Positions 8,481 through 51,255 are shown, numbered from the stretch's first letter. The stretch: 64,000 bases of DNA from Mesotaenium endlicherianum (GCA_009602735.1 WELA01003469.1:18166-82165); one strand, 5' to 3'. A program made the numbers and translations. The notes: generated by a model not told the origin, from the letters alone.

Positions 8481-9654
8481 TGCGACATCGATATGAACAA
8501 AGTAAGTCAAAGACAGGGAGACAAGTGCTACAATTTTTTTACGTTGCGATTTAAATCAACTCTATTAACTTCATTGCAATTATTTGTCGCACTCTGCGCC
8601 CGGCTTGCAATTCTTGCAAATCTTTTAAGAAAGTAAAAAAACCGCAGCCAGTTAGCACCCCATGCTTTGCGACACTACACTACAACCTGTTCCCAATAAC
8701 TAATGAAACCTTTTCTTTTTGTTCATCACCTAGTCCAAATGCGTGTGTAGAACCTTGTGCACAATCTATTCGATAATAAATAATGTGACATGGTTCCAGT
8801 GGCTAGTAGTCAAGTGAATCAAGAAGCTGCATCCATTTGAATGGAACTAGGACCCACCCGTGCTAATGGTTGCATGTTGGCTGCTGACACGCTCATTGTC
8901 AGTGGACGGTGCACGAGTGGATGGGATGGACACAAATTGACACATTCGCAAACTACCTCACAGATCGCGAGCCATCTCACGATTAGTAGTGGTAGGGAAG
9001 ACCTATTTGTCATCATCTGTAGTAAGTCAATGTGCCTAATGTTGCAGCAAAATACTCCATTTGGTCGCTCGCTGTATGTCGTCGGAGTACTAACGACCCG
9101 TAATTTCAAAAAAATTGCCGGCTACCGCCGGTAGTCGTCCAAGTTTCGGACAAGGTACTATTGGGGTCTCTTGCCCCAAGGTATCGCCTCCTGTTCCCCC
9201 TCTGTCGCCTTCACTTCGATGCCCGTTCGCCCTCGAGCCCTATATACATACAGTCTCGACTCTCGAGGGACTGGACTGGACTGACGCCACACTGGCAGTT
9301 GCAGCTTGTTACAGGCCCGTCACCAGCGGACAAGTGAAAGAGAGCAGTTCCGTCAACCTTCGGACGTTTGGGTCGTATAAGAGCCGGTTTAGAGTGGGCA
9401 CTGGCGACGAAGTTCTATTCCGCTTATTGCGCTATTCCGGTTAGGGCGCTAACGAAATTTCAACTTTTGGTTTACAATGAGCAACGTCCCTACTATTCCA
9501 TCGACCGTCAAATTCCTCTACTACATGAGTCGCGATTAGCATCTCCTTTCTTTAGCGGGGGGATAGGTCACACCCAGACAAGTGTTTCAATTGTGGCAAC
9601 AACTTACGCGACAAAGTACAGTAGAAGGGCTTGACGAGTCGATTTTGACGTGTA

Positions 9655-12834: not shown

Positions 12835-13946
12835 CTTGTCATGATTTATTGTGTCGAGGTTGACGTACAAGACCAAGCTCCACTTGTGTGAACCATCAAC
12901 TTAGGAAGACTGACTTTGCATTGATCTTACGCATCCATATGTTGACCTTTTCTAGATTTTCCAAGTCACCAAAGTGTTCCAAGTCACCAAAGTGTAGCAC
13001 GTTAAAGCATCTTCCAAATGGCACCGGTTTCGCGTCATTTGGTTAAGTATCGAGCGAGATAGGCGCGATTTAGTCTGCACCCCTTCTTGCCCCTAGCGGA
13101 ATCACACCAAATGGCCAACTTGTGACTCAATGTACCCAAAGGTGACATTGTTGGCTATTTGTGACCCCAAGGACCCCTAGCTTTGTACGCACAATCCGCG
13201 AGCCCCTTAGCCTACAAAAATCTTGCATAGTAGTGCATCATTGAGGTTATAACTTGGTGACTGCATCACCTACTCCTAGAGGACGCTTCCTCAAGTTCCA
13301 GATTCACTTTTGAGGCACTATCTAGGTAGAATCACCCAAGGTAAGCTCCACCAATGAGAGACACATAGCATATTCTACGTGCTTTGCTTTGATTGATTTT
13401 GAGTTATGCTTAATCTATAGGAGTGCTAGTACATGCCTTGTACACATTAGTGGACATAGAACAGCCTCCTAGTGTGACTTCATGCATTGGATCCGCCGCA
13501 TACGACGCCGGGTTTCCAGAAGTATAAGTATTAGAGATGTCCTTAGAGGAACATCATTTTAGAAGTCCCATTATGCCAGTTTTAAGTCACAGAGGTTATC
13601 AGTAAAGCTTACACTTTCATCTCTTGTGTTTTAGAGACCACTTAGTCTCTCTCTTGTGAAGAGTAAGCCCTCCTGGCTTGCAAAATCTTGATGAACTTCA
13701 CAAGTGGTGAGCAAAGTCACAGCTTAAACCCTGCCAGAGGACTACTTTTGAAGATCATGATGTGCTTCGAGTGATCTTTTGGGCCAGACTTCATTAGTTG
13801 TTTTCCTACCAGATTACAGTCTTGAGGTGCTCACTTTGGAGAGTACACACTCCCGTACTTCTAAAATAATCTCTCTATGCCTGCACGCAAATAGAATCTT
13901 CAGCGTATGCCTACCCGTAGTGGACGTTCTTACCAGCCTTACTACA
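12835..13946 (+). mobile_element. Probable 3' part of the family-B LTR
   Basis: Ends ...TTACTACA, nearly the inverted repeat of TGTAGTGA at 10918/11314. 12880-13075 resembles 1290-1465 (gcgtcatttggtt...gagata). Confidence 0.45.
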
Positions 13947-16358
13947 GAGGAATTTGTGGAGAAGACTCGAACTCCGCTGGTCCCGATGTTTGTGCCAGCA
14001 GCCGAAGCGCCTGCGCCTGAAGCTCCGCTGGCATTCGCAGCCGCTCCTGCGGAGGCGCTAGCGTTTGCCAAGGCGCTAGTTGCAGGAGGACCAGAGCCAG
14101 CAACACTCACGGCGCCAGTGCCAGGTGGGCCAGTGCCACTGGGCGGCCTTCCGGCCGCCGAGGCGGCGCCATCTCTGACAGCTGAGCCAGCAGGCCTGGC
14201 ACCTGCGCCGGGAGCTGCGCAGGCATGCTCAAGAGTGGCCGCACTAGCTCCCGCTACCCTTGTGACGCCAGCGACGGGAGCGCCAGCCCACGAGACACCT
14301 GCTGCGCCTGCGCTGGACGCGCCAACGCCAGGCATGCCAGCGCCAAGGGTGCCAACACCCACGCCAACAGCCGCAGCCGTTCCTGCAGCTGTGCCACCGA
14401 CGGCCGCTGCGCTTTCAGCTGCTGCGCACGCGCTTGCGCCAGCAGCGCTCGCGCCTGCGTCCGGGGGTGCGCCGGCTCTCGCACACACGTCAGCGCCGGC
14501 AGCCATGTCAGCAGCCGCTACGTACGTACCAGCAGCTGCTCCAGCACCGGCAGCTGCGCCAGCATCCGTGACACCTGCGCTGGTAGCTGCGCCAACCGAG
14601 GCGTTCGCCGTCATGCCGACACACGCAGCTGCGCCAGTGCCTGCTGCGCCAACTTTGGCAGCAGCGCCAGCGGCCACTACGCCTACGCCAGCAGCTGTTA
14701 CTCCCATGCTCGCTGCAGCTTCGGACTTTGTTCTGGCCTGCTGCGCACGCACACGGCCTTTGGGCAGCCGCACAACAGCGGGCATGGTTGGATGCAAGCG
14801 CACATCGGTGGCGGCAGTCGGACAACCGGCAATGGCGCAGAAGCGCAACGGACCAGACCAAGGTCGCCACACAAAGGAGGCGCCGCGCTTGCCCCGCTCC
14901 TTCCGCGTGCTGGAGACGCCAGCGGAGCCAGCTACCCTTGCTCCACGCGCACTCGCCTCGCTGATGACTACGGTGCAGCTCAGCGCCGAAGTCATCTTGC
15001 TGACGCTACACCGGATGCCAGCCGTCTCCTTTGCGAAGCTCGGCGTGTCAATGGGGGCCACACGGCAGGCAACTCAGCTATTGCTTTAGTCGCGCAGGGC
15101 CAGCCATTGCACCTCTGGCGGCAGGCCAGCGCCAGACGCGGCAGCGGTGCTCTTCGCACCCGCGTGACCTGCGCGTGAGCGCAGAATGATCAGCACGCCT
15201 AAAGCTGCGTTCTTGGATAATTTGCAGGGGATCGTGCTGGTCAACACGCAGGCCCCGCAGCGCATCATGTTTGACTCTGGCGCCCAGCCAGTCCTCATCA
15301 ACCTGCGCTACTTCCGCCAGCTGGGCCTCTTGTCAGCCGACCTAGAGGATTTGCCGACGCGGATCAACACCGCAGCCGGCACGTCCGAGACCGTCACCGG
15401 GCGCACGCGGCTGGCCCTTTGCTTCACCTTTCAGCCAGGCACTCCGGATGAGACGAGCATCCACCAGCACATGTTGGTCACTCTCTCTGAGACCCTTGAC
15501 GTGCTCCTTGACCAGGACGTTCTCTTTCCTATCGATGCCGCAGTGGATAACTGGGTGGAGTGGGTCTTCTACCGACCTGACTGGCAGTCAGGGGGGACCC
15601 GCACGGCATCCATGTCGCTTGACATCGTGGATCGACGCTCAGCTGAGTCCGCCCTCTACGGCTTCATAGCGCTGGACGACGGTCGACCCGTGGTTTATAC
15701 CAATAAGAGGGGGCCGAGGAGGATGAGGTCTCCGTAGGCGCCAACTTGCTTGAGACGCAAGATGAGGACCCCTAGCTGTCTGGCAAAGCTCCACCTCATG
15801 CCCCAAAAGCAGGTTGACGTTCTAGCCGCACAGGCCAGGGAGACGGTGCGGATCTACGCCGCTCATAACGCCATGATGCGTCAAATGGCGGCGGATGCCG
15901 TCGAGGCACACGCCATCGCCACGGATGCCATTACAGCTGCAGCGCTCGCCCACAACACAGCGACAGCCGCTGCAGTTGCCCCCAGGCCACCGCCTCTAGC
16001 GACAAGTGAACCCTCAGCGAGATCAAACGCTCGCTGACCCGCTTACGGCCCGGTTCTGGCATCTGCTCCGCGTCCTCAACATGGTTGAGGACCGCCAGCC
16101 GCCGCACACGCTCGCCTGGGTGTTAGAGAACGTGGCTGTACGTCACGATTCTCGACCCAACGCTAGTGCCGACTTTGCCCCTCTGCAGCAGCTACGTCGG
16201 TCGTGAGGCCGTCATTGACGCTGCCCAAATTGGCTCCTTCGCGCACCCCGTGCGCGCTTACTTCACCAACTTGGCCATGCAACGCACGCTTAAGGCATTG
16301 GCGGCCGCACATCCACGCCACACGCGCAACGTTAATTCTATCCTCGACGTGGCGCGTC
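13947..16358 (+). mobile_element. Degenerate GC-rich retroelement: Ala/Pro-rich region, aspartic protease and C5 DNA methyltransferase fragment
   Basis: Retropepsin motif IMFDSGAQPVLI in 15186-15737. DNMT-like segments at 16006-16350 are described in the next feature. Confidence 0.7.
16006..16358 (+). pseudogene. Cytosine-5 DNA methyltransferase fragment (motifs V-VIII region), frameshifted
   Basis: LADPLTARFWHLLRVL (post-motif IV / motif V), WVLENV (motif VI ENV), then after a frameshift IDAAQIGSFAHPVRAYFTNL (motif VIII, xHRxRxF/Y-like). Motifs I and IV are not recognisable. Confidence 0.7.
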
Positions 16359-17008
16359 TGGTGAAACGTTTTTAGCTTTTCGAGAGGATCTTTCCTCGGT
16401 ATTCAAGGAATATTTAAATAAAGTAGAAATAAAATCTATATACTTGTGCACATTGAGACATCCTCGAGAAAGCGAAAATGAAATCTAACGTAGAATGTGT
16501 GCTTGTGAGAGTTGCACTCACAATGACTCTGCAGGTATTTATACCTGCACGACGTGAGGCACTGGAGTGCTTCGGGTCACCACCTAGGGCACTACTTCAT
16601 GTCAACAAAAACAGGCGAAGGAGTACGACCCATTTTGGCTGAATGCTCGAAACGCGCCATTTGGCCTTTTGGAGACTTTTTGACGATTTCCGAAAATCCG
16701 TTTCGCGCCAAACGAGCGTTTTCGCGTTCTCGCGACTTTTCGAAAAGTCGCGATTGTTTGCGGAGTCGCGTACACATGCTTTTTGTCATGAACCGGTAGT
16801 TATAAAAACTACTGCGCCAATTGGTTAGGTGTGAACAGTCAAACGACAGGTCGCGGGCTCGATTTTGCTCCGATGCAAAGTCGCTTTGCATATTATGTGT
16901 CGTTTGACTTTTACGACTGTTTGTTCGTATTAACGACTGGTCGTAAATCCAAAATCTGTGACTGTGCATTATCCAAAATAATGACAATCAAAATAACTGA
17001 ATCAAACA
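16359..17008 (-). mobile_element. Possible solo LTR of a third family
   Basis: Minus strand starts TGTTTGA and ends TTTCACCA, with an internal TATAAATA followed by a CT-rich tract. It separates two unrelated truncated elements. No TSD seen. Confidence 0.4.
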
Positions 17009-17014
17009 ATGATT

Positions 17015-19398
17015 AATTGCCCTGGACTCATATTCCTCAGGGTCACCATTGCGAACGGCTTGGACCGGTCCCGGTTGGACAAGTAACTGACTTGTGAACA
17101 GTGTGTCACCCGTAATGTATGGGTCCATGAAAGAGACATTAAAGATTGGGTGACCCTTGTATTCCGCTGACATGTTCAGCTTGTAAGCGTTTGACCGACG
17201 CGGCTTATCACCGTATATGGACCGACCCAAACCGGACCAAGCTTTTTCTTAACCACACCAGGAATATATAAGTGTTGGGAATGTAGTTTGACCAGGTCAC
17301 CTCTAGAAAAAGTCAACTCCCGCCTATGTTAGTTAGCATATTTTTGTTGGTTTTCCTGTGCTTTAAACAAATTTTGTTGGACTTCTGACAGAGTGTCAGC
17401 AAACTCTTGAGTCAATTGACGGGAGATTGGATTGTCAATCCCTTAGGGTGAGTCATAAACTCCCCGAGCACATTTAAAGGAGACTTAGAGACTCTACCCA
17501 AGCTGAGTTTAAAGGGAGTCTTCCCTCTTGTCGCGTGCACAGAACTGTTGACTGCGAATTGAATTTGAGGCAACAAGCCATCCCATTTATCCTGTTTTTG
17601 ATTAATAGAGGCTCTTAGCACCTCTTCTAGAATTCGGTTAGTTCTTTCATTTTGCCTATTTGTCTGAGGGTGGTTTGCTGTACTAAGTAGCTGTTTGACT
17701 CCCATCACCCCATTAAAGCTCTCCAGAACTTAGAGGTAAATTTTGAGACTTTAACTGAGTTTATATTGGAGGGTAGCCCATGTTGGCATACTACCTGATT
17801 GTAGAACCGTCTTGCACTTTTGAGTGCAGTCACCTTGACAGTTGTGGGGATAAAAATGACCACTTTTTTCAATTTATCCACTACTACCAATATAGAATCA
17901 TGCCCATTGGCAATTTGTGGTAGTGTTACCACCCAATCCATTGGTATTGTTTCCCACCTTTGAGCTGGGATTGGTAGTGGTTGTAGTAGCTCTCCAGGTG
18001 GTGCGTGTCTAGACTTATTCTTCTGACACTGATCACAAGACTTAACGTAATGTAAGACCTTCCGAGGCAATCCTTCCCAATGATAGTGTTTTGCCATTTT
18101 GCCAACTGTTTTGGCCTGCCCCAAATGCCCACCCAGTAGGCTGTCATGAGCTTGACTCAGGAAAAGAGACCTTAATTCCAAGTTATTAGGAACAAAGATC
18201 ATTCAGAGTGTGCACTCTTTGGGGATCTATATTGCTGAAGGTCTCCTTTATCTGGTTGTCAGGCATGCATAGTGAATCCACTTTAGCAGGGCCCATAACA
18301 CCTATTAGAGGGCAGCTAGCGATGACTCACTACCTTTAGCATCCTCACAGTCAGTAGACTGGATTACTGACTGTTGCTGTCTCTTGATAGGCTGATCCTT
18401 TCTCTCAACCTTGGGTAGCTGTGTCCTAGGCCACTGCTTCCCGTAGTGGCCTTTCTCTTGGCAATGGTAGCAAGTAGAATTTGCTGAGGCTGGTCTCGGC
18501 TTAGTCCTACCACCACCTCTTTAAAAGCCTCTTCAAAAGTATCCACCCCTACCACAAGACTCAATAGCATTGTACACATAAACATCATGCTCCACATCCT
18601 GGTCATTCTCAGCCTGGTCTCCTTCAATGGCATTGTAGGAAGCATGGAGCTCTTTGACGACTTTAGCCACAAGCGTGCTACTTTGACACTTGTAGATGAA
18701 TTGCTGCTGATTCCAGGCATCAGTATCCTGGATCAAGTGAGCCCGTTTCTCATAATTTTTTTCAGCAAAATGACTTGAGACCTCAGACTTCAAGCCATAC
18801 CTGAAGAATGCTACCCTATACTACTCTGGCAATTCTCGCTTCTTCATCATGTTCTCTTGGAACTTCTGAGCGTACTCAGCGACGGAGGTGGCGTGCCTCA
18901 TCATTAAGGAGATTATTGCATAGATAGCTTTCTCCTGCTGATTGATCACATCAAATTTCTCATGCAGCTTCTCAACAAACTCTACCCAAGTAGGGTCATC
19001 GAGTTATTGAGCCTTACGTTCTCCTTTCTAGTAGAGCAACCAGTCTGCTGCACTACCTTTCAGCAAAGCACCGGTGTGCCTGACCTTCTCGTAGTCTTGC
19101 ATTTTCGGATAGTTGTCCAGCCACTCCTCAACATCAGCAAGAAATTTGATGAGATAATACTTCTTGTTTCCCTCATGGTCATAGTCCTGAGGGAACTTTG
19201 GCTTAGGCTTACTGGGCCCTCTTCCTCCGCGAGTAGACTGAGAACCCAGTTGGTCTCTGTCACGCACCAGTGCTCTCATGATTCTTTTGTCCTCTTGTTG
19301 GGACTCATACATGATGGCCATTTGAGATTGCATTTGTACAAATAATGCACCAAGATCAATAGGCTGTCTTGGCATCCCAGCCATAGCAACAGCAGCAG
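17015..19398 (-). mobile_element. Internally deleted family-A element (gag and integrase/chromodomain remnant), first assembled copy
   Basis: gag and integrase peptides match the intact element. The copy ends at the N at 19399. Confidence 0.85.
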
Positions 19399-19399
19399 N

Positions 19400-22300
19400 T
19401 CAAGAGTGGCCGCACTAGCTCCCGCTACCCTTGTGACGCCAGCGACGGGAGCGCCAGCCCACGAGACACCTGCTGCGCCTGCGCTGGACGCGCCAACGCC
19501 AGGCATGCCAGCGCCAAGGGTGCCAACACCCACGCCAACAGCCGCAGCCGTTCCTGCAGCTGTGCCACCGACGGCCGCTGCGCTTTCAGCTGCTGCGCAC
19601 GCGCTTGCGCCAGCAGCGCTCGCGCCTGCGTCCGGGGGTGCGCCGGCTCTCGCACACACGTCAGCGCCGGCAGCCATGTCAGCAGCCGCTACGTACGTAC
19701 CAGCAGCTGCTCCAGCACCGGCAGCTGCGCCAGCATCCGTGACACCTGCGCTGGTAGCTGCGCCAACCGAGGCGTTCGCCGTCATGCCGACACACGCAGC
19801 TGCGCCAGTGCCTGCTGCGCCAACTTTGGCAGCAGCGCCAGCGGCCACTACGCCTACGCCAGCAGCTGTTACTCCCATGCTCGCTGCAGCTTCGGACTTT
19901 GTTCTGGCCTGCTGCGCACGCACACGGCCTTTGGGCAGCCGCACAACAGCGGGCATGGTTGGATGCAAGCGCACATCGGTGGCGGCAGTCGGACAACCGG
20001 CAATGGCGCAGAAGCGCAACGGACCAGACCAAGGTCGCCACACAAAGGAGGCGCCGCGCTTGCCCCGCTCCTTCCGCGTGCTGGAGACGCCAGCGGAGCC
20101 AGCTACCCTTGCTCCACGCGCACTCGCCTCGCTGATGACTACGGTGCAGCTCAGCGCCGAAGTCATCTTGCTGACGCTACACCGGATGCCAGCCGTCTCC
20201 TTTGCGAAGCTCGGCGTGTCAATGGGGGCCACACGGCAGGCAACTCAGCTATTGCTTTAGTCGCGCAGGGCCAGCCATTGCACCTCTGGCGGCAGGCCAG
20301 CGCCAGACGCGGCAGCGGTGCTCTTCGCACCCGCGTGACCTGCGCGTGAGCGCAGAATGATCAGCACGCCTAAAGCTGCGTTCTTGGATAATTTGCAGGG
20401 GATCGTGCTGGTCAACACGCAGGCCCCGCAGCGCATCATGTTTGACTCTGGCGCCCAGCCAGTCCTCATCAACCTGCGCTACTTCCGCCAGCTGGGCCTC
20501 TTGTCAGCCGACCTAGAGGATTTGCCGACGCGGATCAACACCGCAGCCGGCACGTCCGAGACCGTCACCGGGCGCACGCGGCTGGCCCTTTGCTTCACCT
20601 TTCAGCCAGGCACTCCGGATGAGACGAGCATCCACCAGCACATGTTGGTCACTCTCTCTGAGACCCTTGACGTGCTCCTTGACCAGGACGTTCTCTTTCC
20701 TATCGATGCCGCAGTGGATAACTGGGTGGAGTGGGTCTTCTACCGACCTGACTGGCAGTCAGGGGGGACCCGCACGGCATCCATGTCGCTTGACATCGTG
20801 GATCGACGCTCAGCTGAGTCCGCCCTCTACGGCTTCATAGCGCTGGACGACGGTCGACCCGTGGTTTATACCAATAAGAGGGGGCCGAGGAGGATGAGGT
20901 CTCCGTAGGCGCCAACTTGCTTGAGACGCAAGATGAGGACCCCTAGCTGTCTGGCAAAGCTCCACCTCATGCCCCAAAAGCAGGTTGACGTTCTAGCCGC
21001 ACAGGCCAGGGAGACGGTGCGGATCTACGCCGCTCATAACGCCATGATGCGTCAAATGGCGGCGGATGCCGTCGAGGCACACGCCATCGCCACGGATGCC
21101 ATTACAGCTGCAGCGCTCGCCCACAACACAGCGACAGCCGCTGCAGTTGCCCCCAGGCCACCGCCTCTAGCGACAAGTGAACCCTCAGCGAGATCAAACG
21201 CTCGCTGACCCGCTTACGGCCCGGTTCTGGCATCTGCTCCGCGTCCTCAACATGGTTGAGGACCGCCAGCCGCCGCACACGCTCGCCTGGGTGTTAGAGA
21301 ACGTGGCTGTACGTCACGATTCTCGACCCAACGCTAGTGCCGACTTTGCCCCTCTGCAGCAGCTACGTCGGTCGTGAGGCCGTCATTGACGCTGCCCAAA
21401 TTGGCTCCTTCGCGCACCCCGTGCGCGCTTACTTCACCAACTTGGCCATGCAACGCACGCTTAAGGCATTGGCGGCCGCACATCCACGCCACACGCGCAA
21501 CGTTAATTCTATCCTCGACGTGGCGCGTCTGGTGAAACGTTTTTAGCTTTTCGAGAGGATCTTTCCTCGGTATTCAAGGAATATTTAAATAAAGTAGAAA
21601 TAAAATCTATATACTTGTGCACATTGAGACATCCTCGAGAAAGCGAAAATGAAATCTAACGTAGAATGTGTGCTTGTGAGAGTTGCACTCACAATGACTC
21701 TGCAGGTATTTATACCTGCACGACGTGAGGCACTGGAGTGCTTCGGGTCACCACCTAGGGCACTACTTCATGTCAACAAAAACAGGCGAAGGAGTACGAC
21801 CCATTTTGGCTGAATGCTCGAAACGCGCCATTTGGCCTTTTGGAGACTTTTTGACGATTTCCGAAAATCCGTTTCGCGCCAAACGAGCGTTTTCGCGTTC
21901 TCGCGACTTTTCGAAAAGTCGCGATTGTTTGCGGAGTCGCGTACACATGCTTTTTGTCATGAACCGGTAGTTATAAAAACTACTGCGCCAATTGGTTAGG
22001 TGTGAACAGTCAAACGACAGGTCGCGGGCTCGATTTTGCTCCGATGCAAAGTCGCTTTGCATATTATGTGTCGTTTGACTTTTACGACTGTTTGTTCGTA
22101 TTAACGACTGGTCGTAAATCCAAAATCTGTGACTGTGCATTATCCAAAATAATGACAATCAAAATAACTGAATCAAACAATGATTAATTGCCCTGGACTC
22201 ATATTCCTCAGGGTCACCATTGCGAACGGCTTGGACCGGTCCCGGTTGGACAAGTAACTGACTTGTGAACAGTGTGTCACCCGTAATGTATGGGTCCATG

Positions 22301-24569
22301 AAAGAGACATTAAAGATTGGGTGACCCTTGTATTCCGCTGACATGTTCAGCTTGTAAGCGTTTGACCGACGCGGCTTATCACCGTATATGGACCGACCCA
22401 AACCGGACCAAGCTTTTTCTTAACCACACCAGGAATATATAAGTGTTGGGAATGTAGTTTGACCAGGTCACCTCTAGAAAAAGTCAACTCCCGCCTATGT
22501 TAGTTAGCATATTTTTGTTGGTTTTCCTGTGCTTTAAACAAATTTTGTTGGACTTCTGACAGAGTGTCAGCAAACTCTTGAGTCAATTGACGGGAGATTG
22601 GATTGTCAATCCCTTAGGGTGAGTCATAAACTCCCCGAGCACATTTAAAGGAGACTTAGAGACTCTACCCAAGCTGAGTTTAAAGGGAGTCTTCCCTCTT
22701 GTCGCGTGCACAGAACTGTTGACTGCGAATTGAATTTGAGGCAACAAGCCATCCCATTTATCCTGTTTTTGATTAATAGAGGCTCTTAGCACCTCTTCTA
22801 GAATTCGGTTAGTTCTTTCATTTTGCCTATTTGTCTGAGGGTGGTTTGCTGTACTAAGTAGCTGTTTGACTCCCATCACCCCATTAAAGCTCTCCAGAAC
22901 TTAGAGGTAAATTTTGAGACTTTAACTGAGTTTATATTGGAGGGTAGCCCATGTTGGCATACTACCTGATTGTAGAACCGTCTTGCACTTTTGAGTGCAG
23001 TCACCTTGACAGTTGTGGGGATAAAAATGACCACTTTTTTCAATTTATCCACTACTACCAATATAGAATCATGCCCATTGGCAATTTGTGGTAGTGTTAC
23101 CACCCAATCCATTGGTATTGTTTCCCACCTTTGAGCTGGGATTGGTAGTGGTTGTAGTAGCTCTCCAGGTGGTGCGTGTCTAGACTTATTCTTCTGACAC
23201 TGATCACAAGACTTAACGTAATGTAAGACCTTCCGAGGCAATCCTTCCCAATGATAGTGTTTTGCCATTTTGCCAACTGTTTTGGCCTGCCCCAAATGCC
23301 CACCCAGTAGGCTGTCATGAGCTTGACTCAGGAAAAGAGACCTTAATTCCAAGTTATTAGGAACAAAGATCATTCAGAGTGTGCACTCTTTGGGGATCTA
23401 TATTGCTGAAGGTCTCCTTTATCTGGTTGTCAGGCATGCATAGTGAATCCACTTTAGCAGGGCCCATAACACCTATTAGAGGGCAGCTAGCGATGACTCA
23501 CTACCTTTAGCATCCTCACAGTCAGTAGACTGGATTACTGACTGTTGCTGTCTCTTGATAGGCTGATCCTTTCTCTCAACCTTGGGTAGCTGTGTCCTAG
23601 GCCACTGCTTCCCGTAGTGGCCTTTCTCTTGGCAATGGTAGCAAGTAGAATTTGCTGAGGCTGGTCTCGGCTTAGTCCTACCACCACCTCTTTAAAAGCC
23701 TCTTCAAAAGTATCCACCCCTACCACAAGACTCAATAGCATTGTACACATAAACATCATGCTCCACATCCTGGTCATTCTCAGCCTGGTCTCCTTCAATG
23801 GCATTGTAGGAAGCATGGAGCTCTTTGACGACTTTAGCCACAAGCGTGCTACTTTGACACTTGTAGATGAATTGCTGCTGATTCCAGGCATCAGTATCCT
23901 GGATCAAGTGAGCCCGTTTCTCATAATTTTTTTCAGCAAAATGACTTGAGACCTCAGACTTCAAGCCATACCTGAAGAATGCTACCCTATACTACTCTGG
24001 CAATTCTCGCTTCTTCATCATGTTCTCTTGGAACTTCTGAGCGTACTCAGCGACGGAGGTGGCGTGCCTCATCATTAAGGAGATTATTGCATAGATAGCT
24101 TTCTCCTGCTGATTGATCACATCAAATTTCTCATGCAGCTTCTCAACAAACTCTACCCAAGTAGGGTCATCGAGTTATTGAGCCTTACGTTCTCCTTTCT
24201 AGTAGAGCAACCAGTCTGCTGCACTACCTTTCAGCAAAGCACCGGTGTGCCTGACCTTCTCGTAGTCTTGCATTTTCGGATAGTTGTCCAGCCACTCCTC
24301 AACATCAGCAAGAAATTTGATGAGATAATACTTCTTGTTTCCCTCATGGTCATAGTCCTGAGGGAACTTTGGCTTAGGCTTACTGGGCCCTCTTCCTCCG
24401 CGAGTAGACTGAGAACCCAGTTGGTCTCTGTCACGCACCAGTGCTCTCATGATTCTTTTGTCCTCTTGTTGGGACTCATACATGATGGCCATTTGAGATT
24501 GCATTTGTACAAATAATGCACCAAGATCAATAGGCTGTCTTGGCATCCCAGCCATAGCAACAGCAGCAG
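19400..24569. repeat. Exact-looking tandem duplicate of 14229-19398 (5171-bp offset), probable scaffold-overlap artefact
   Basis: Every ORF is repeated with identical translation at +5171, and the junction is a single N. Confidence 0.9.
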
Positions 24570-27212: not shown

Positions 27213-28583
27213 TGGTCAGGGAGAGAGACCTGGCTCAGTGGGAGGAGCCTAGGGGGATTGGTGGGGGCCAGGGTACCAGGGGGAGGAATCGGGTTGTCTC
27301 AGAAGGTAAAGTGGGAGGAGGGGAACGCCAGGGGGAGTGTCCGGGAGAGTGCTAGGAAGAGGCACAGGAGGAGCGCGAGGAGTGTCGGGCATAGGCACCT
27401 CTGGAAGGTGGGGGTAGGTGAAAGGTCAAACCCCAGGGAGTGCAGGGGGTTCTTCTACAAGGGGATTTGACGAGGAAGTATATGTAGCGGGCTCTGCAAG
27501 ACCCTTGGGCAAGGGCAACTTCACAGGGCTAGGGGATGGGACCTCAGAGGGAGCACCGGTGTGGGGTTGATCTCAGGAACAAGGCAAGCAGAGAAAGAGA
27601 GAGGGCAACGGAGAGGAAAGGGGGGAAGGAGGGAGGGAGACAAAGAAAGAGAGAGAGGGAGTCACAAGGACCGCGTGCCCGTCAACAAGGACATACTAAT
27701 TCAACGTTGGTGATGTGCACGTAGGGGCCTGAACGCACCTGCGCTGCCTGCCCCTGCCGTTGCTGCCATTTCCGCCGCTGCTGGCGCTGCTCGCCCAGTA
27801 ATCCCTCCTTCATACCACATCACATAAAACCAGGTGGTAGCACCACACAGGCCACGCCTCAATCAACCTCAACCTCTCATTAGGGACGGCATCCGCTCTA
27901 CACAGCTAATGGCACAGCCATGACCGGCAAAGGCGACATGGACTACTGAACGTATGTATGTGCCTGACAGCAAGCTGCCAATTGTCAGGCGCTCGGCCAA
28001 GCGCTCTACCACGTGTCATCGCCTGCACGCGCGGATGCGCGGGCTGCCGACGTGCAGTGGCGGTTGCGCGCGAGCGTGGCCAAGGGGGCTAGAAAGATTA
28101 ACGCCGCACGCGCGCTGTGGGCTGTCACGTATGCTTCAGCTGATGCCACAGCACAAAAGGACCTGCGGCAAAGGACCCCTCGGGAGACAAACGCTCGAGA
28201 AGCTTGATTGTGAAGCATTTCACACGAGGCTAACACAAGACACACAGCCAATCCTGTGAGCGATTCACACTACTTGCGAACGGCCATCTTGCGAAAAAAT
28301 TTCATCGCGTTCCAAGTTGCATGCTCGTCCTCGTTGCGTTTCATACAAGTGAGGATGGTAAGGAGCCCCACTGTCTCTGATGCATGTTGTCGAAGGAACT
28401 TCAAGAAAGCTCAGTAGCAAACGTCCTGTGATTATACAAATGAAGCTGTGACGGGAAGCACCGCAACGATGACTCTGAACTGAGTTCATTGATTCTGGAC
28501 TTTTCGTTTTTCCAGCGGCATCTTGCACATACCAAATTTGCGCCATGGCTGCGAAGACCGACGCATGACGTTACTTGGCAGGT

Positions 28584-30914
28584 ATGGAAGGCGATACGCA
28601 GATATTGCATGAAATTGACGATATAAGAGGGACAACCCTGGCTGTCAACGGGCAGCTTGTGCATTGCGCTCTTTCTGTGCCTGTGGGTGATACTCAACTG
28701 TTCGACGGAGACACGGCAATAAGACGCGGGTCAGCTGACCATGTGCCTCAAAATTACGGCGAGAAAAGACGGCTAGAATTCGGGGCGACAGTGAGGGCCG
28801 ACAAGAGGGACGGCCTCTCGCGTTCGTGCTCGGTGGCCTCTGACGCGTCCACGCAAGGCGACGAGCTGGAGACGGAGATACAGATGCACTGCGGCGCAGA
28901 TGAAGAAGGGGCTAACGAAGTAGAACAGGAGAGTGGAGCTGCAGCGGACAAGTGTCCCCGGCACGAGCTCCCATGCGGCGGGGGCGGCCCCAGCGAGCAA
29001 GTCAGCCAGCCGTACAGCCGGCCCTCCCAAAAGGGCAGGAGGGTGGTGGCGTCTCAGCGCTGGGGCCTGAGCTCGAAGGAGAAGGCCTCAAGCGCGGCCG
29101 CTGTCACAGGGGTAGCGAGCCCTGTGCAGAGGCGTCTGAGTCTGGTTCTGCAGGAGACTCAGCTCACGCCACCTGGCAGCCCTCAGGGTAGGGGAAGCCC
29201 GGCGCTGACGGCGGCAGCGTGCGCGCCGCCCACCGCAACGCCTGGGCGGTCGCCAGCAGGCCTTGTGCTTGTCATGGACGAGGTGGGGGAGGGGGAGGAG
29301 GAGGAGAGGGAGGAGGAGGAGGAGGAAGGGGAGGCGGTGATGCAAATGCCACTAATGAGAGGAGAGGCCCATAGGTCAGCCATGGAGGAGGGCAGCCGGC
29401 CTCCAGGACTCAGCGTGGCACGTGCGCTGCAAGCGCCGCCAATGCAGCTGCTCCACCCAGTGGCTGACACGTGTCCCGCTGGGGTGCCCGAAGCCTGTCT
29501 CCTAGCGATGCCCGACACCTGTCCGCTGGGGATGCCTGACACGTGCGACGCCTCCACCCAGGACAGGGAGAGGTGGTGGCGCCCCTGGTGCCCGCCTCCT
29601 CGACCCGCAGAGGAGGCCCAGCTGGCGCACACGCACAGCGCCACCCGCATCCGCATCCCCGGGGTTGCAGGCGGCCACTTGAGGGCTCCTGCATTATTGC
29701 CTGCCGTAGAGGGAGGGGAGGGCCTTTCTTTGGAGAGCGCACCGTCAGCGGCTACAGGGACAGGTGGCAAAGGAGAGGGCACTTGCAGCAGTGCAGGGCA
29801 GTCAGCCATGGGTGTGGGCACGGGTATGGCTATGGCTGCCAGCACAGGGACGGCTGCGACGGCCGAGACGGAGGAGTACTTTTTCCCGGTACCGTCTTCT
29901 ATCAGGCAGGAGGTGGAGGAGGGTGCAGCTCTGGCGGAGGCTGAGGTGGTGCTGCTGGGGCGTCGCCACTTGGCAGTGGGAGGAGCCGGATGGAGTCGCA
30001 GGGGTGCAGGTGAGTGGGGGAGAGAGTGTCATCATCTGTATGTCCCTCCCTTTCCGTGCTTTCCAGGGATGACATCACCTGATCATACTACTCTTCTCCC
30101 CAGCACGCAGTGCGGCATGGTGTGGGGCCGCGCGTGTGTATGCAGCGCGCAGAAGCGGCGGGTCACTGTTAGCCGTCATTGTTGCAGGTCCCCTCAGACA
30201 CGTCAATGGTAGTGACAAAACAGAACTCAATCTCTGAATGCACGGCCAAAAACTGCCGGTTCTTTTCCCTGCAACTGGAACAGCGGTGAGCTTGCTTGCT
30301 TGCTGGCGGAACGAGAGAGACGGATGGGACACCCTTGTTGTCCTGGTCGCTGCCTGCCTGCCTGCCTACTCGCCCGGTACTGCCTGTGCTGGACGGGAGT
30401 GCCCTCCGTTGCTCTGTCGCTGCTATGAGGGGGATCGGGCCTCACAGCCACTACCTCCACTACTACTTGCCTGGCTGCAGCTGCTGCGGGGTCGCAGACA
30501 GCGGAGACGGGAACAGCAGCAGCAGCAGCAGCGTATTCCGGCGGAGGAGAGGGTGGCGGAGCCACCGCCGCTGCTTGGAGCGGCTCTGAGGTGGCACCTG
30601 CAGGGCACGGGCACCACAAGGGGGGGGATGGGGCTGCTGAGTGTTGGGGACGGGAGACGCTGGGAGAGAGCAGGTCTGCCGGAGAGAGCGCATCGCTGGC
30701 GCCGCAGCCTGCCTGCGCTTTGTCCCCAGGTCCTGCTGCCGCCGACTGTGAGCCAAGTGGCGACCCTATAGCAGCAGCAGAAGTGAAGGGCCAGAAAAGG
30801 GCGGGGGCGGCGGAGGACGGGGCACAGGAGGCTGCTGCTGCCTCTGCTGATGCTGCTGCTCCTCCTCCTGCTGCTGCTGCTGCCGCTGCTCTTCCAGTGC
30901 TCCAGCTCGTGGGC

Positions 30915-30956
<42 letters not shown>

Positions 30957-33900
30957 GAGGAGGAGGAGGAGGAGGCGGCACCAGGGCTGCGTGAGCTGGG
31001 TGGGGCAGGAGGAGCCGGGGCAAGCAATCAGCCAGGTGGCACTGTGAGAGTGGACGCAGGCTCAGCAGACACATGTTCCAAGGGCGGGGACGAAGGACAG
31101 GTGGCAGGCGGAGGGGGGCGCAGAGCGTCCCTTGGGGGTCTTGGAGGGCTAGGGGCGTACTACGCGCTCAAGCGGGGCCGCGGCAGCACAAGGAGCCCCC
31201 AGCTGCAGCAGCTGCGCCATCAGCAGCAGCAGGTACAGGCGCAGACGCCGCAGCAGGCAGAGGCCAATGAGGGTGCACCCGCGGATCAGGAGCAGGAGGA
31301 GCAGGGCGGCAAAGCATACCTGGAGGAGGAGGCAGCAGCAGTGGCATCGGCAACAAGGAGAAGCCTGAGCATGACCAAGGGCGCCGCATTGGCTGCGCAC
31401 GGGGGGCCAGGCACGGAGGAGGAGAAGGAGGAGGAGCACGGGGGGTGCACGGCCTCCCGGGGTGCCCAGCGGGCTCCTCTGCCTCCTGCTTTCCCAACGG
31501 GTGCTGAGGCCGAGATTGGGGCAGGGGCAGGGGCAGGAGCAAAGGAAAGCTCGCCTGAGGGCGCCGCGGGGGACTCGCGACCTCCAGGTGGCACATCTGG
31601 AGATGATACCCCCCTGTGGGTGAGCGACCAGCACCATAGCCGCCTCCTCCTCCTGCAGCGCGCCTCTTCCCCTGCAGAGCCGATCGGGCCCATTGACACT
31701 CAGGAGGAGGGGAGGCACCAGGGTGGTGGTGCTCTGCGGGCTGAGGAGCAGCAAGGGGAGGGTGGCACGCCTCCAGCAGCAGCAGAAGCGGTAGCAGCCC
31801 TCCGGAATGGTGGGGGGGTGGTAGCGCCAGCGGGCCTGGGGGGCTACGGCGAGCCGGCCAGCGAGCCGGGCGAGGAGACGCAGGCGGACGCGCTGGATGT
31901 CATCGGCCAGCTGCTGCTCTCCGAGCTGGGCGGCGGCGGCGGCGGCGCTGACGGCGACGACGGCGCCATGCCCAGCAGCCCCGCGCGCGCGCCCCTGCCC
32001 CTCTTCTTTGGGGGGCACCCTCCTCCTCCTCCTCCTCATCCTTTGGTTTCTGCCAGGCCAGCTGCAGCAGCAGTAGCAGCAGCACGCAGGCAAGAGGAGG
32101 AGAGGGGAGGCAGTGGCGGGGGTGGTGGCGATGGCGGCTCTCCGCCGGCCACGGAGGAGCTGTGCCCCGCTGCCATGAAGGCCCCGCAGCAGCAACAGCC
32201 GGAGTCAGTCTCTCCAGCACCTCTCGGGGGGGCGGAAGCTGGCGAGAGAAGGAAGCGTGGGGGTGACTCCAGCAGCCTCAGCCTGAGCCCGAGCCTGCCG
32301 CCCGGCAGCAGCAGCCGCCGCCCCGTGCCCTTCCGGCCCCTCACTGCGCCAAAGCTGCAAGCGGCTGGACAGGAGCAGCCCGCAGGAGGACACATGTTGT
32401 CGCCAGGGGGTGGCTACCAGGGCGCGGGGGCTCTGGGCTTTGGGCGGGCGGCAGACAAAGCCAAGGGCTTGCTGTCCGGCATCCTGAAGCAGAAGCACGT
32501 CAAATCTCCCCCTGTAGCCTGCATCTTTGACTGGGTCAACACTCAAGACGATGCGCCGGAAGTCAGCCCTCATTGCCACCCGCCCCCTCCCCCTGCTGCG
32601 CCTGCGCCTGCGCCTGCGGGTGCGGGTGCGGCTGCAGGTGCAGGTGCAGGTGCAGGTGCGGGTGCGAGTTTTGCAAAAGTCTTGACGTATGCCCGGAGGC
32701 CGCAGAAGGAGGGGCCCTCTGATGAGGTCTCGCCAGGCGGGCAGGAAGGGGAAGGCACCAGCGGGGTGCTGCCACCTGGGACAGAGCGGACAAGCAGCCC
32801 AGGCGCAAGGCTGAAGCCTGCAGGAGCTGCTGGGGAAGCGGAAGTGTACGACTGGATCGACAGCCAGGCAACCCCAGGCGCCAGTAAGCACGCACCACCT
32901 GCGCACCCCGTTGGAGAAAGGGACACCAGGCGTGGCTCCGCAGCAGGAGGTGCCCGGGGCAGGGAAAGGGGCAGGGGCAGGGGCAGGGGCAGAGGCAGAT
33001 CTGCTGGTGCTGGTGCTGCGGGTGTCAGAGTGCGACCGGCACCGCACCCGCTAGGCGTCACTAAGGCTCCTCGTGGCGGCAACAAACAAGGACGAGGAGG
33101 AGGAGGCAGCAGGGCTCGAGGTGCTGGCCCTGCCGAAGCTCCTCCTGCTCCTCCTCCTCCTCCTCCTCCTGTGTCCAGAAGAGCTTCTTTTGGTGGGCTC
33201 CCTTTTGAAGGCCGGGGCGAAAGCGCTGCGGAAGAGCAGCTTTTCCCCCTTCCAGGAGCAGGCAGAGGAGCAGCAGGAACGGCAGAAGGGCCTGGGGATG
33301 GGCAAGCAAGGCCTGCTGCTGCTGCTGCTGCTGCTAGTAGAGCCCAGAAAATAAAGAAGCTCCCTGTCGTCAATCTGGGAGCCCCAGTGGAGCTGCTGCT
33401 GCCGCCCGAGGGAAGGCGTGTGAGCAGTGGGGGCGGGAGTGCGCCAGGTGCCACTCCTCCAGCAGTAGCTGTGAGCGTGAAGAAGAAGCTGCCAGGTGGC
33501 AGCGAGGAGCGGGACAATGCAGGTGGCACGCTCAGAAAAGCCCCCAAAGCTGCAGGGCATGGGGGCATAGGTGCTCCCTCCCCTGCAGTGGCAGCTGCAG
33601 TGACAGGGGCAGACGCGGCGCATTTCAGAAGGTCTCCCTCTTCCTCTTCTCGGCATGCTCCCTCGCATGTGCCTTCTCCTCATCCTCCCGCTCCTGCCCC
33701 TGCTGCCCCTGCTGCGCCTGCGCTGCTGCCGGGCCGGCATCCTCCTGCAGCAAGGAGGACGGGGCAGATCTCTGCTGCGGCTGCGGCTGCGGCTGCGGCT
33801 GTTGTTAGCAGAGATCAGTCCAGAGGGGAGAAGGTGGCAGCACCGAGCACCCCCCACAGAGGGCAGGCCAAGCCTGCTGTTGCTGCTGCAAGAGAGGTGG

Positions 33901-36900
33901 GGTTGTCGCCAGTTGGGGAGATGACGCAGGCGGCTGCGGAGGCCATGGACCTGCTGAGCTGGACGCTGGAGTTCCAGAGCCCCCAGGTGGCGGCGCCACC
34001 ATGGCCGCCACCGCTGCCTCTGCCATTGCCTCTGCCTCTGCCGCCGTGCAGGGAGGATGCGCAGGCACCACCTGTCCAGGCAGGAGCCGTCCGGGAAGGT
34101 GGCGATACACCAACAACAGCAGCAGTAGCTGCAGCAGGAGAAATGTTGAAGGCCCAGGAGGGGGAGGGGGAGGCGGAGGGGGCAAAGGAGGGGGTGCGGA
34201 GGGTTCAGAGAGGGGGGCACACAGCTGGCGCTAGGTTTGCCAAGAGGAAGAGGAGAGGTTGCAGGCAGCCAACGGCTGAGCGCTCTACATGCCGGCAGGA
34301 AAAGATGGCCTGGGACTCGGGCACGGCCGCCGATGAGACGACGACAGCGACAGCCACTCAGAGGAGGCCGATTGCGGCCCGCAGGCGGCTGCCCCTGGAG
34401 GAGGGCGGAGAGAAGCGCCGGGAGGGGGAGGACGGAGAGGGCGGAGAGAAGGAGAAGAGAGCGGGCGGCGCCCAGGAGGTGGCGAGGGGAATCAAGGGTG
34501 TAGCGGCGTTTCGGGAGCAGAGGCTGGAGGGGAGGGCGGGGAGGAAGGAGAGCGCCAGCCGCAGCACCAGCGCCAGCACCAGCCCGCCAGACAGTGGGCT
34601 CCAGAGGGCGAGGATGCGCCCCGTGGTGGAGGCGGGCCGCAAGCGCCGGCGCCTCTCTGCCGTCTTTGCTGGCCCCGCCCAGCAGTTGCCTGCTGCTGCT
34701 GATGTTGCCAGTGGCGCTGTTGGTGCTGTAGGCATTGCAGCAGCAGCTTCAGCAGCAGCAGTAGCGCGGGAGGAGGAGGAGGAGGAGGAGGAGGAGGAGG
34801 AGAGTGCGAACGCTGAGTCTGATGTGGAGGCCGTGGCTGAGGCTGAGGCTGAGGCCTTCCCTAGCCCTAGCAGGCAGAGACGGGCTCCACGAGGGAAGGG
34901 GAAGAGGAGGAGAGAGGAGCTGGAGAAGGAGCAGGAGAAGGAGGAGGAGCAGCAGCAGGTGGGGCCACCTGGTAGTGCCGGGTGGGTGCGCTTGCCTGTG
35001 GCAGAGAGAGTGAAGCGACGTCGCAGTCTGCCTGGGGACGAGCTGGCACCGTCCGGCATCACGGGGGGCGCGGGGATGGGGATGGGGGGTGTGAGCGTCA
35101 CGAGGAAGGGGCGGAGTGACAGTGGCCTGAGGAGGGGCAGGAAGACAGGGACCGCCGGGCTGCGCACTCGCTCCCGCCTGTCTCCGCCTGCTGCAGGCGT
35201 CGCTGCAGCACCAGCACCACTATCATCAGCAGGAGCAGCACCAGCAGCAGCAGGAGCAGCCGGAGGAGGGAGGGGAGGACAGAGCTCCAGAAGAGGCCCT
35301 GCTGCGCCAGAGAAGGAAGAGGAGCAAGCAGGGAGGGCTGCTGCTGCTGCTGCAGCGAGGAGTGGCAGAGGCATCACTGCCGCACCTCCTGCTGCTGCTG
35401 CTGGTGCTGGTGCTGCTACGCTACGACGACGAGGAGGAGGAGGGGGGGGGCATCAGAAGAGGGCCACGCGCGTCCCACAGGCGGCAGCGGAGACGGAGGA
35501 GGTGATGGTGGTGGACGAAGAGGAGGAGGAGGAGGAGGAGGCAGGGGCGGCGCCTCCGCTGGCGCCGCACTCCTCCCGAGAGTATGAGCCCTCCGCCTCC
35601 CAAGACAGCTGGAGGGCAACGCCCGGCACCGTAACAGATGGCATCGCCGCCCGGGTGGCCACCATGAGGGCCCGGAGGGGAGAGCTGCCGAAAGTGCGAG
35701 CGGCGGTGCTGTTCAGCCACTCTTTGGCGGACGACGTGGTGGCGCACCAGAAGAAGGTGCCTCCCTCTTCTGTCTTGGCCTCCGTCCAGTCTGTGCATGC
35801 ACGTTTGTCGTGTCTAGATGGGCCTGTTGTAGGTGTCCTTGCACTGAGTCTTTCCACTGGAGATAGTCATAGTCGCCCCCCGCACATGCATGCATTCTGC
35901 CAGGGTGGACTCCCTCCCAGCCGACTGAGAGCGTCGAGGTTTGGTCCCACCCACCGCGTGTCTTCCCCACCACATGACTCATCCACAGCACTCAGCGTGC
36001 CCCCATCCCCCACTCTCCTGCGACACATGCTTACGCCGGACCCGTTCCGGCGGGCAGGCCCATTCGGGATTCCCCACTGTGCCTCTGCCGAGTGGAGTGT
36101 TGTGCGAGAGCCACACGCACGCCTGTGCCGACGCCATCTGGCAGAACAAAGGCCAAATACGCGATCCTAATCTCGTCAACTAACGCCCAGCTGGCAGCTC
36201 TCCCATGCCCGAGTGGCTGGCAGCCAAGCGCGGCGGCTGCAGGCATGTGTGCCGCCTGGCAGTCCACTGCACAGCCCCAGCTAGTATTCAACCATTGCTT
36301 CCGTTCGTGTCGCGGCCACCTCCTCTTCCTCACGAGGCCTAGTGTGTCATCATGGTCCATGGCCCATGCTTGCTCATAGCGGAAGAATGCGGGCCCCGAC
36401 GGGCAGCGTCAGGAGGATGCCAGCAAGCCCGTCGTCGAGCGGCCTATGGTCGTGCGAGGAGGAGGAGGAGGAGGAGGAGGAGGAGGAGGAGGAGAAGACT
36501 GCTGATGCCTGCCGAGGGCAGGGGCAAGTGACAAATGCTTGTCCTTGGAGCAGATTGGCAACTGGCACAAGCGTGTGAATGCGCATTGTTACTTGGCACA
36601 CGGACGTCTGAGATTTTGGGCGGCCAATGGAACGTATTTTGGCTTGCGTGCCTGGGCCCGAAGAGGAGGCGTCACTTTGCACCCATTGGGAGGGAGTCTC
36701 TTGTGGTGAGTGGTGTGGCTGGGAGCAGATTCTGGGCACCCTGGGGGGGCGCACGACTGGCAGAGCGTCGGAGTGCACCCACTTCGTCACCAAGGGCTTT
36801 GCGCGCACGGCCAACATGCTGGAGGCTGTGGCCAGGGGGTGCCACGTGGTCACGCCCAGGTGGCTGGAGGCGTGCAGGCAGGAGGCGAAGATTCTGGAGC

Positions 36901-42370: not shown

Positions 42371-43811
42371 ATATGCTGTACTGGAACCAGTAATCTTGTA
42401 TAGAAGAAATATTGGTGACAAGCGAACGGCTGTATATACAACCTACACACTAGAATTGCACGACAAATTCACTAGAGAGGACGAGACTAGATTGGGTAAA
42501 ACCGAAGCACTTATACTCCCGTCCGTCTCGACAAGGTAGGGCAGCGTACTTTGGAAAGAGGAATCTTGCCGCTGTAGTATTAGGTGTTTGAACAATGGAA
42601 GTGAGAGAACCACGCTGAAGCTGGATAACTTACCTGATTCTAAAGTCTCCTCTTACCTCGTAGAGAGTCGGTTAGCCACTTACATTGCAGTATTACTTGG
42701 AATGCAGTTTCGCTCATGCAACGTAAGCCCCAATGGAGTGGCTGCAGAAGTCAGCTTACCACGCACCCCAACACTTCACACCACTTCACACTACCGGCTT
42801 AAGACTGTCGACTGACACGCGGTCAAGCAGCTGTGAAAGCCTGGTGAGCCGGTCTGAAGCGGGAGGATTTTGCTGGTCAAGGGCTCAAGAAAAAAAACCG
42901 ACAATCTGTAGCAAACATCAACACACGCAGTTGCCCCGGATTCAAATAGCCGCGCCTTGCAAGCCATTTAATTTTTTGAAAAAAATTACAACAATTAGTA
43001 GTTGCATGTGATAGGCCGCTAATTTTAAACATCACGTTAGAGTTCGAGTCAGTTTGCGTGGAGTGTATCCTCCAGTATCCGCCAATTTTTTCTCATCGGA
43101 ATAAGCTGGGAATAAGCAATGCTGGCGGACTCTGGACTACACAGGAATTATCTGCTTATTGCCAAGTAAGCAATCCGGTGAATTTATGGCAGCCTGATTG
43201 AGCCTGATACACCGGGATGGACAGGATGGAGGTTACTTTTGGCAACTTTTGGACCTTTTATGACGGCGGAAAGGCCTCCCTCAGTCATTCACAGTCTAAA
43301 TGTCCTGGAGGCGCACTCAACTGCCGCCGCTTCAAAGATCAATCCACGTCAGGAGCTCTACACTTGCTTTTTGCAGAGTGGATATATATGGAGCCAGTAT
43401 GGTGCCCATACTTGAAGTTGCTTGAAGTTGCTTGAAGTGAACTGAACGAACTGAACTAGCTGGAACTAGCATGAATTCGCATGAGCCAAGTTGCATTTAA
43501 TGGGCCTTCTATCTGCCAGTAGGCACTTCGAAGTGATATGATTGCACGCGTGTCTCCCACAACTCTACTGATGCGCTGGTTCCGATACCTGTAATGTAAG
43601 GTGCGCTTGACACGATTGAGTGCAGAAGGTCAGAAAGTGCACTAGTCCACTTTTGATTGGTTAGATGAAGTCGCTCCAGTCGATTCTCTTGTTGCTGACA
43701 AGCAATGTCAGGAAATGTCAGGTTTGGTGCTTTCATTGGTTCCGTCTAGTCAGCTTTAGTAAAGTAAGCTGAAAGTAGGGACCACTCAAAACGCTCAGGA
43801 CTGCAAGCAGC

Positions 43812-51222: not shown

Positions 51223-51234
51223 TGGTATCGGAGC
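51223..51234 (+). promoter_or_regulatory. Primer-binding site, tRNA-iMet type
   Basis: TGGTATCGGAGC lies 1 nt after the LTR and differs at one base from the plant consensus TGGTATCAGAGC. Confidence 0.9.
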
Positions 51235-51255
51235 AGTTATCACAGTCTTCTTTGT

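Follow-up and report, generated by a model that had tools for sequence, protein, structure and literature searches.

Organization of the locus

The analysed window, i.e. the whole stretch of 64,000 nucleotides from Mesotaenium endlicherianum (GCA_009602735.1 WELA01003469.1:18166-82165), contains on its plus strand the remains of a retroelement in which a retropepsin-type protease is followed by a broken stretch homologous to C5 cytosine DNA methyltransferases (DNMTs). The features of this remnant and its surroundings are given below, where profile positions and E-values refer to a family profile built from 12 DNMT domains of proteins that were found only through the protease.

13960-15167, plus strand: gag-side polyprotein remnant, consisting of an Ala/Pro-rich stretch and a pre-protease segment common to relatives
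15168-15737, plus strand: retropepsin-type aspartic protease, 189 aa ORF with FDSGAQP motif
15738-16028, plus strand: protease-to-DNMT linker (252 codons from the catalytic Asp to the junction)
16028-16029, plus strand: junction of an internal deletion of ~105 codons, which removes DNMT motifs I-IV including the catalytic cysteine
16030-16177, plus strand: DNMT piece 1 (motifs V and VI, ENV kept), profile positions 110-165, E=1.8e-8
16178, plus strand: one-base frameshift, largely private to the window copy
16179-16361, plus strand: DNMT piece 2 (motif VIII region), profile positions 163-223, E=2.9e-13
16362-17020, no strand assigned: unrelated, far more abundant repeat adjoining the truncated end, where GC content falls from 0.62 to 0.42
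19400-24569, plus strand: exact duplicate of 14229-19398, identical at all 5170 bases

The FDSGAQP motif, read as that of a retropepsin in the initial annotation, is located in an ORF with its catalytic Asp codon at 15273 (15168-15737), which was shown to match Pfam Asp_protease_2 (PF13650) with an E-value of 2.9e-5 and to pass the curated cut-off. Three in-frame stops are present in the protease frame, at 15087, 15165 and 15735, the last of these being the TAG that closes the ORF (15735-15737). The context of this TAG was checked for a readthrough signal and is not CARYYA (see below); the stop is likely a product of decay.

The gag-side remnant is covered by an ORF in the protease frame (13761-15089) and is interrupted by the in-frame stops at 15087-15089 and 15165-15167. 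Neither a capsid nor a zinc knuckle was found within 13960-15167, nor was any Pfam match. Upstream similarity to relatives extends back to ~14830, as observed in tblastn searches with the relatives P0033 (window 14832-15626, E=9e-19) and P0019 (14886-15593, E=2e-26), and an R-L-P-x-S-F-type motif near 14850-14920 is common to the window and its relatives. The left end of the element is approximate (~13900-13990), and contig depth drops near 13987, coming from a flanking high-copy repeat.

Downstream of the retropepsin, the DNMT remnant occupies ~16030-16361. The DP of its first piece lies at 16036, 299 nt past the end of the protease ORF, in agreement with the ~300 nt given previously, and all of the motifs quoted at that time were retrieved, with DP..FWHLLRVL and LENV in the frame of 16000 and DAAQIGSFAHPVRAYFTNL in the frame of 16127, the two frames overlapping. 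The motif numbers used here (I, IV, V, VI and VIII) are labels that we assume, and their placement rests on alignment to DNMT3A.

Lesions of the window copy

The window copy is a dead pseudogene that cannot make an active enzyme. Its lesions comprise three in-frame stops, a deletion of ~105 codons, a frameshift and the loss of both ends. Motifs I and V are separated by 100-106 residues in 12/12 relatives, a segment that is missing from the window copy, in which motif V follows the protease Asp after 254 codons with no trace of motifs I-IV in between; in 12 relatives, 170-423 residues (median 228) separate the protease Asp from DNMT motif I. A contig derived from another copy in the species (run X4, record 5) matches the window up to 16028-16029 and then continues with 279 differing letters, and a second such contig (run X1, record 7) exhibits 154 differing letters ahead of 16028. 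The lack of motifs I-IV in the window copy is thus due to deletion and not to divergence.

The frameshift is represented by one extra base at 16178, which is absent from contigs accounting for about nine tenths of the depth (4823/5256 in run X1 and 1462/1653 in run X4). The DNMT match stops at 16360-16361, behind which loose ends in four contigs indicate that other copies continue differently, and summed contig depth, which was not used as copy number, rises ~tenfold at 16375-16384. The earlier description of this copy as frameshifted, devoid of motifs I and IV (only profile positions 110-223 of 326 being present) and cut off at ~16359 is thereby borne out. The same holds for the repeat reported at +5171, as 14229-19398 and 19400-24569 are exactly identical and separated by a single N at 19399, the only N in the window; this second copy is likely an assembly artefact, i.e. 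an unmerged scaffold overlap.

One contig in each of four runs from the same sample joins the DNMT piece (16182) to the flanking repeat (16370) on opposite strands, which suggests that another locus exists where the two meet. The observed/expected CpG ratio of the flanking repeat (16362-17020) is 1.5. Sampling of three raw RNA runs (6-24% of each) yielded no reads on 15850-16361, a result that is not taken as silence, run X7 being uninformative; runs X10 and X13 each contained three reads on the flanking repeat.

Identity of the DNMT remnant

The remaining stretch was shown by profile matches and a shuffle test to be homologous to the C5 cytosine methyltransferases (PF00145), with motifs V, VI and VIII in order. 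When the family profile was searched against the six-frame translation of the window (2399 peptides), the best peptide after these two pieces, the duplicate copy aside, had an E-value of 5.5. The fragment, joined with an X at the break, aligned with the relative P0015 at 34% identity over 115 aa with a score of 132, compared with a maximum of 53 among shuffled sequences (n=1000). Together, the pieces account for positions 110-223 of the 326 in the profile, motifs I-IV and IX-X being absent, and thus the window copy is devoid of the SAM loop (motif I) and the catalytic Cys (motif IV); in the second piece, the first Arg of the motif VIII region is replaced. Together with the DNMT3A alignment and the matches to solved structures described below, the profile and shuffle results sustain the DNMT identity originally proposed from the motifs. 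The Pfam DNA_methylase match that had been expected did not materialize, as neither piece, searched separately, produced a match even at E=10.

One could also envisage that a fragment of a host DNMT3, or a motif match due to chance, lies beside a protease remnant at this locus only, given the missing Pfam match, the nest of repeats that makes up the window and a database homologue search with the second piece (16127-16372) that yielded 70 candidates, none of them at E<=1. This reading is scarcely credible: with the protease alone as query, the relatives retrieved have this domain too, at a corresponding spacing, contigs from other copies cover linker and DNMT alike, and variation among these copies is silent. 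It is refuted by the domain content of the relatives, by the family-profile matches and by the silent-only variation.

Comparison with solved structures placed DNMT3 entries in the top 29 positions of a PDB profile search, with DNMT3A/B/C as the best matches (59 bits vs 34 for HaeIII and 28 for HhaI). PDB sequence searches with the relatives also ranked DNMT3 entries ahead of every bacterial enzyme and of 4onj, a plant entry, and DNMT3 led the fold search with an AlphaFold model of the DNMT of metagenome locus L003, which is of low confidence (pLDDT 51, seven sequences). The top match of the L003 DNMT was an Atlas cluster of 57 eukaryotic proteins, which are mostly streptophyte. By these comparisons, the DNMT domain is DNMT3-like. 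For the window fragment, Dnmt3-relatedness is predicted only from its grouping with relatives, as it was placed among 12 element DNMTs and apart from 20 metagenome/phage-locus DNMTs (SH-aLRT 90, long branch) in a quick tree that was built without K. nitens or host DNMT3 sequences, that omits five partial relatives (P0001, P0017, P0018, P0019 and P0042) and in which the fragment fills 30% of the columns.

Domain order and hosts of the relatives

The first search with the protease returned a single protein, P0001, in which a protease and a DNA_methylase domain are combined, and a full HMMER search with the protease alone identified 95 relatives at E<=1e-3. In a domain scan of the 41 longer members of this set, all eight relatives that extend 300 residues or more beyond the protease match (8/8) were found to carry Pfam DNA_methylase there, and BLAST aligned seven shorter relatives with part of the DNMT. 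The window protease exhibits 28-40% identity to these DNMT-linked proteases. All relatives that extend to motif IV (12/12) have its catalytic Cys, although EC replaces PC in 4/12, and this Cys, the ENV motif and the motif VIII arginines are conserved across algae and liverwort-level distances.

Relatives with a named host were derived from Closterium, Coleochaete scutata, Calypogeia fissa and Marchantia polymorpha (OAE29514.1). The Closterium relatives are GJP34393.1, which encompasses protease and DNMT, and CAI5964179.1; in all named relatives except GJP34393.1, the protease is accompanied by no more than a portion of the DNMT. As judged by these proteins, the family would have a wider host range than was found in print, with relatives in other algae and in liverworts. 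Among metagenome loci, 5/69 were close matches (L001-L005), the other 64 (L006-L069) being weak and DNMT-only, and the 52 loci on viral contigs, which were used as an outgroup, were all matches of 26-40% to the DNMT only.

Three relatives connect the protease to the DNMT and to RT and integrase, a linkage that the initial annotation had proposed to look for in other copies. P0108 contains zf-CCHC, PR, DNMT, RT, RNase H and rve domains in a single ORF, and L001 and L003 contain PR-DNMT followed by RT-RNase H-integrase-PHD. The gypsy polyprotein comprising RT, RNase H and integrase by which Gypsy-Dnmt3 elements are recognized is thus seen in P0108, L001 and L003, whereas the window copy ends inside the DNMT. 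Counted against this assignment are the finding that only 1/8 DNMT-bearing relative proteins holds an RT and the absence of any RT, integrase or LTR of this family from the 64-kb window. The lesions, the DNMT in 8/8 long protease relatives and the other copies in the species (see below) agree with the decayed member of a DNMT-retroelement family that was originally suggested. We consider it highly probable that the window copy is a dead, truncated member of a multi-copy retroelement family with a DNMT3-like DNMT directly after the protease; this family likely belongs to the Ty3/gypsy elements and, among these, to the streptophyte Gypsy-Dnmt3 kind.

A DIRS-like element with a tyrosine recombinase, as in SymbioDIRS-Dnmt3, is extremely improbable. 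The three complete relatives each encode an rve integrase, and none of them a recombinase (among the relatives, an rve match and no recombinase match were obtained for P0108, P0112, L001 and L003), and we know of no DIRS elements with a retropepsin. An LTR search in L001 and L003 detected no long terminal repeat, and the lack of an ordinary LTR pair would suit a DIRS-like structure, but these contigs may be cut inside repeats. KnitGypsy-Dnmt3, the Klebsormidium nitens element considered below, has itself been said to have a DIRS-like repeat structure (PMC5890265).

In L003, the same 23-nt palindromic motif occurs at 11-33 and 9257-9279, near both contig ends, where the contig perhaps broke inside a terminal repeat. 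Non-coding regions 3' of the integrase (L001:7807-8399 and L003:8229-8900) hold short blocks common to both subfamilies, one of which appeared hairpin-like by eye and in which an inverted repeat was found; these may be RNA signals.

A stop codon between DNMT and RT in relatives

In all metagenome loci that reach the end of the DNMT ORF (4/4), gag-PR-DNMT is split from RT-integrase-PHD by a single TAG, with the RT in the same frame. The following junctions, each consisting of TAG plus CARYYA between DNMT and RT, were identified:

L001:4661-4669
L002:2079-2087
L003:5083-5091
L004:1780-1788

CARYYA is found behind the TAG in all four loci, in two spellings that encode different residues, and across L001-L005 only 6/1957 stop triplets precede CARYYA, the four junctions included. 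The first Met after the TAG is codon 117 in L003, eleven residues ahead of the Pfam RT domain, and codon 14 in L001. These loci represent two subfamilies of one group (DNMT 74% and Pol 89% identical), in which the integrase ends in a PHD finger, and therefore count as a single instance of conservation rather than as four. Tobacco mosaic virus uses CAR-YYA as its readthrough signal, and readthrough in MuLV amounts to 5% (PMC2194720). The TAG-CARYYA of the relatives is predicted to direct programmed readthrough; it is known from relatives alone, as the window copy ends upstream of that point.

One in-frame stop between polyprotein halves is likewise found in MuLV, SIRE1 and Tca2, where it parts gag/pol or pol/env (PMC2194720), whereas in L001-L004 it follows protease and DNMT. 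Two-ORF groups split after GAG or GAG-PROT have been described (PMC6317226), and the accessible part of that paper mentions neither methyltransferase nor PHD nor readthrough. A literature search, which left subscription journals mostly outside its reach, found no paper on readthrough between DNMT and RT.

Such a junction would account for the several long relatives whose sequence stops behind the DNMT, an observation that could otherwise point to a non-autonomous gag-PR-DNMT family borrowing RT and integrase from another gypsy element. This alternative could draw on the 7/8 DNMT-bearing relatives that end without an RT and on the absence of a family RT from the 64 kb, but we regard it as very unlikely, since L001-L004 have an RT in frame behind one stop, which accounts for such protein ends, 2/7 of the RT-less relatives end inside the DNMT, and P0108 holds all domains in a single ORF.

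Other copies in the species and selection

Other copies of the element are present in the species' DNA. Many diverged contigs cover protease, linker and DNMT in four DNA runs of one sample, which is possibly the source of the window, and run X5 of a second study contributed low-depth pieces at 16179-16347. These copies lack the frameshift and exhibit extra sequence where the window copy has its deletion, and one variant site is supported by up to 42 contigs. No contig spans the element and no intact copy was seen among the species' short contigs; an intact copy with RT is nevertheless likely to be present in this genome.

All 15 listed segregating DNMT sites among the other copies are silent (15/15; expected share 0.31, p=3e-8), in a test that was confined to 25 DNMT sites among the 40 variant rows listed of 98 (run X4) and to one sample. 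Near-private sites of the window copy change the residue in 5/10 cases. Since variation among the other copies is only silent, the family DNMT was under purifying selection, the window copy having decayed since.

Comparison with known systems

DNMT retrotransposons have been reported from dinoflagellates and one charophyte by de Mendoza et al. 2018 (PMC5890265), the paper to which the initial annotation had correctly attributed them. In its accessible part, the only streptophyte case described is KnitGypsy-Dnmt3 of Klebsormidium nitens, where the DNMT lies in the RT ORF and, according to the peer-review file, shares this ORF with RT and RNase H. The present family resembles KnitGypsy-Dnmt3 in having an intronless Dnmt3-related DNMT in what is likely a gypsy-type polyprotein, in its streptophyte host, its multiple copies and its purifying selection, a likeness drawn from the published description. 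It differs in that the window copy is dead and without an RT; P0108, with DNMT and RT in one ORF, agrees with the K. nitens arrangement, whereas L001-L004 have TAG-CARYYA in between and an integrase-PHD end.

The relatives also share a DNMT3-type domain in retrotransposon Pol with SymbioDIRS-Dnmt3 of Symbiodinium, which is, however, a DIRS element with a tyrosine recombinase, found in dinoflagellates and regarded as an independent capture (PMC5890265). The EpiLTRs of Cymbomonas and Euglena are likewise LTR elements that combine a C5 DNMT with a chromatin-reader domain, the DNMT being located at the 3' end of pol in Cymbomonas, but their DNMT is sister to DNMT4 and is accompanied by an adenine methyltransferase and a chromodomain (10.64898/2026.05.21.726589). 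The same work names 'streptophytes (Gypsy-DNMT3)' as known, and PMC12344493 mentions such elements in streptophytes, labelling them Copia. PHD-transposon fusions are common (10.1101/2021.11.30.470311), and the Phygy non-chromovirus elements of Physcomitrella prefer NCGN for insertion (PMC6317226). Within the reach of our literature search, to which subscription journals were mostly closed, no paper was found that describes Gypsy-Dnmt3 elements from Zygnematophyceae, Coleochaete or liverworts.

Taken by itself, the window copy is a dead repeat of an ordinary sort, and its kind is already known. What it adds is a selected multi-copy DNMT family where only the K. nitens streptophyte example was found described. 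Furthermore, the relatives in Coleochaete, Closterium and two liverworts provide many natural DNMT domains for assay, and the readthrough junction in relatives offers a cheap, testable prediction of DNMT amount.

Possible function of the element DNMT

An intact element would be translated as a polyprotein, from which the protease would free the DNMT inside the particle, so that the DNMT may travel with the RT and add CG methylation to the cDNA before integration. A new copy would then arrive resembling host DNA, and may thereby be hidden or have its chromatin set. In one group of relatives, readthrough after the DNMT would place the DNMT at Gag level and the RT at a few percent. Taken as a whole, a dead copy of the Gypsy-Dnmt3 kind whose intact members likely methylate their own cDNA is probably the best explanation; cDNA self-methylation as such, proposed after de Mendoza et al. 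(PMC5890265) as the function of the family DNMT, might equally well prove right or wrong.

The same element could harbour a DNMT with another job, i.e. one that acts in nucleic acid binding, that has RNA or the target site as its methylation substrate, or that dampens the activity of the element. These options are listed by the authors of PMC5890265, who call the role of retrotransposon DNMTs unclear, and the K. nitens domain produced no methylation in yeast, a result that they deemed inconclusive; DNMT3B was likewise inactive in the same yeast assay. SymbioDIRS-Dnmt3 domains, conversely, were shown to perform de novo CG methylation in yeast, while SymbioDIRS-Dnmt3 elements and DIRS elements without a DNMT displayed no significant CG difference (PMC5890265). 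The replacement of PC by EC in a third of the relatives (4/12) would suit another job, whereas the catalytic Cys, the ENV motif and the arginines of motif VIII, which have been retained among algae and over distances as large as that to liverworts, argue against it.

CpG content bears on both readings. The element (13960-16361) exhibits an observed/expected CpG ratio of 0.96, compared with 0.37-0.50 for the neighbouring chromoviruses and 0.57 for the GC-rich host gene, and only 3/12 T/C and A/G differences lie in a CpG-decay context. Long-term CG methylation is expected to erode CpG, and the undepleted element therefore counts against self-methylation and is compatible with another job, which we hold to be possible, if somewhat doubtful.

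More broadly, Gypsy-Dnmt3 might constitute an ancient streptophyte-wide clade that extends into land plants, much of which, the window family included, would use UAG-CARYYA readthrough, with the DNMT as a Gag-level structural particle cargo that methylates cDNA before PHD-guided integration; we put this forward as a speculative and rather unlikely extension.

Neighbouring features of the window

Membership of the family among the chromoviruses was considered and rejected, as the window protease has no match to the chromovirus Pol at 52689-56519 (and none by BLAST, even at E=10, to the chromovirus protease of the window), and the relatives' Pol is 30-31% identical to this Pol, with either a PHD or no further domain at its end. 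The RTs in the window are those of chromoviruses, with 30-31% identity to the relatives' Pol, compared with 48% of the relatives' Pol to each other.

A near-intact chromovirus is located at 51208-56519, with a gag that includes a zinc knuckle, related repeats on both sides and a pol in a different frame from gag, represented by an ORF of 1276 aa (PR-RT-RNase H-integrase-SH3-chromodomain). Many decayed chromovirus relatives are found throughout the window. Just past the chromovirus pol, an extra ORF of 581 aa (56718-58463) has a coiled-coil start and no convincing Pfam family; a related piece occurs at 49615-50127, the ORF thus being repeated within the chromovirus element family.

Two host genes were also observed. 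A large GC-rich gene at 28569-37400, which we take to be MDC1-like, has long low-complexity exons and a BRCT domain. On the minus strand, the gene at 40736-42442, whose best matches are Streptophyta clusters and point to a likely streptophyte host, encodes a DUF7950 domain with weak PAS similarity.
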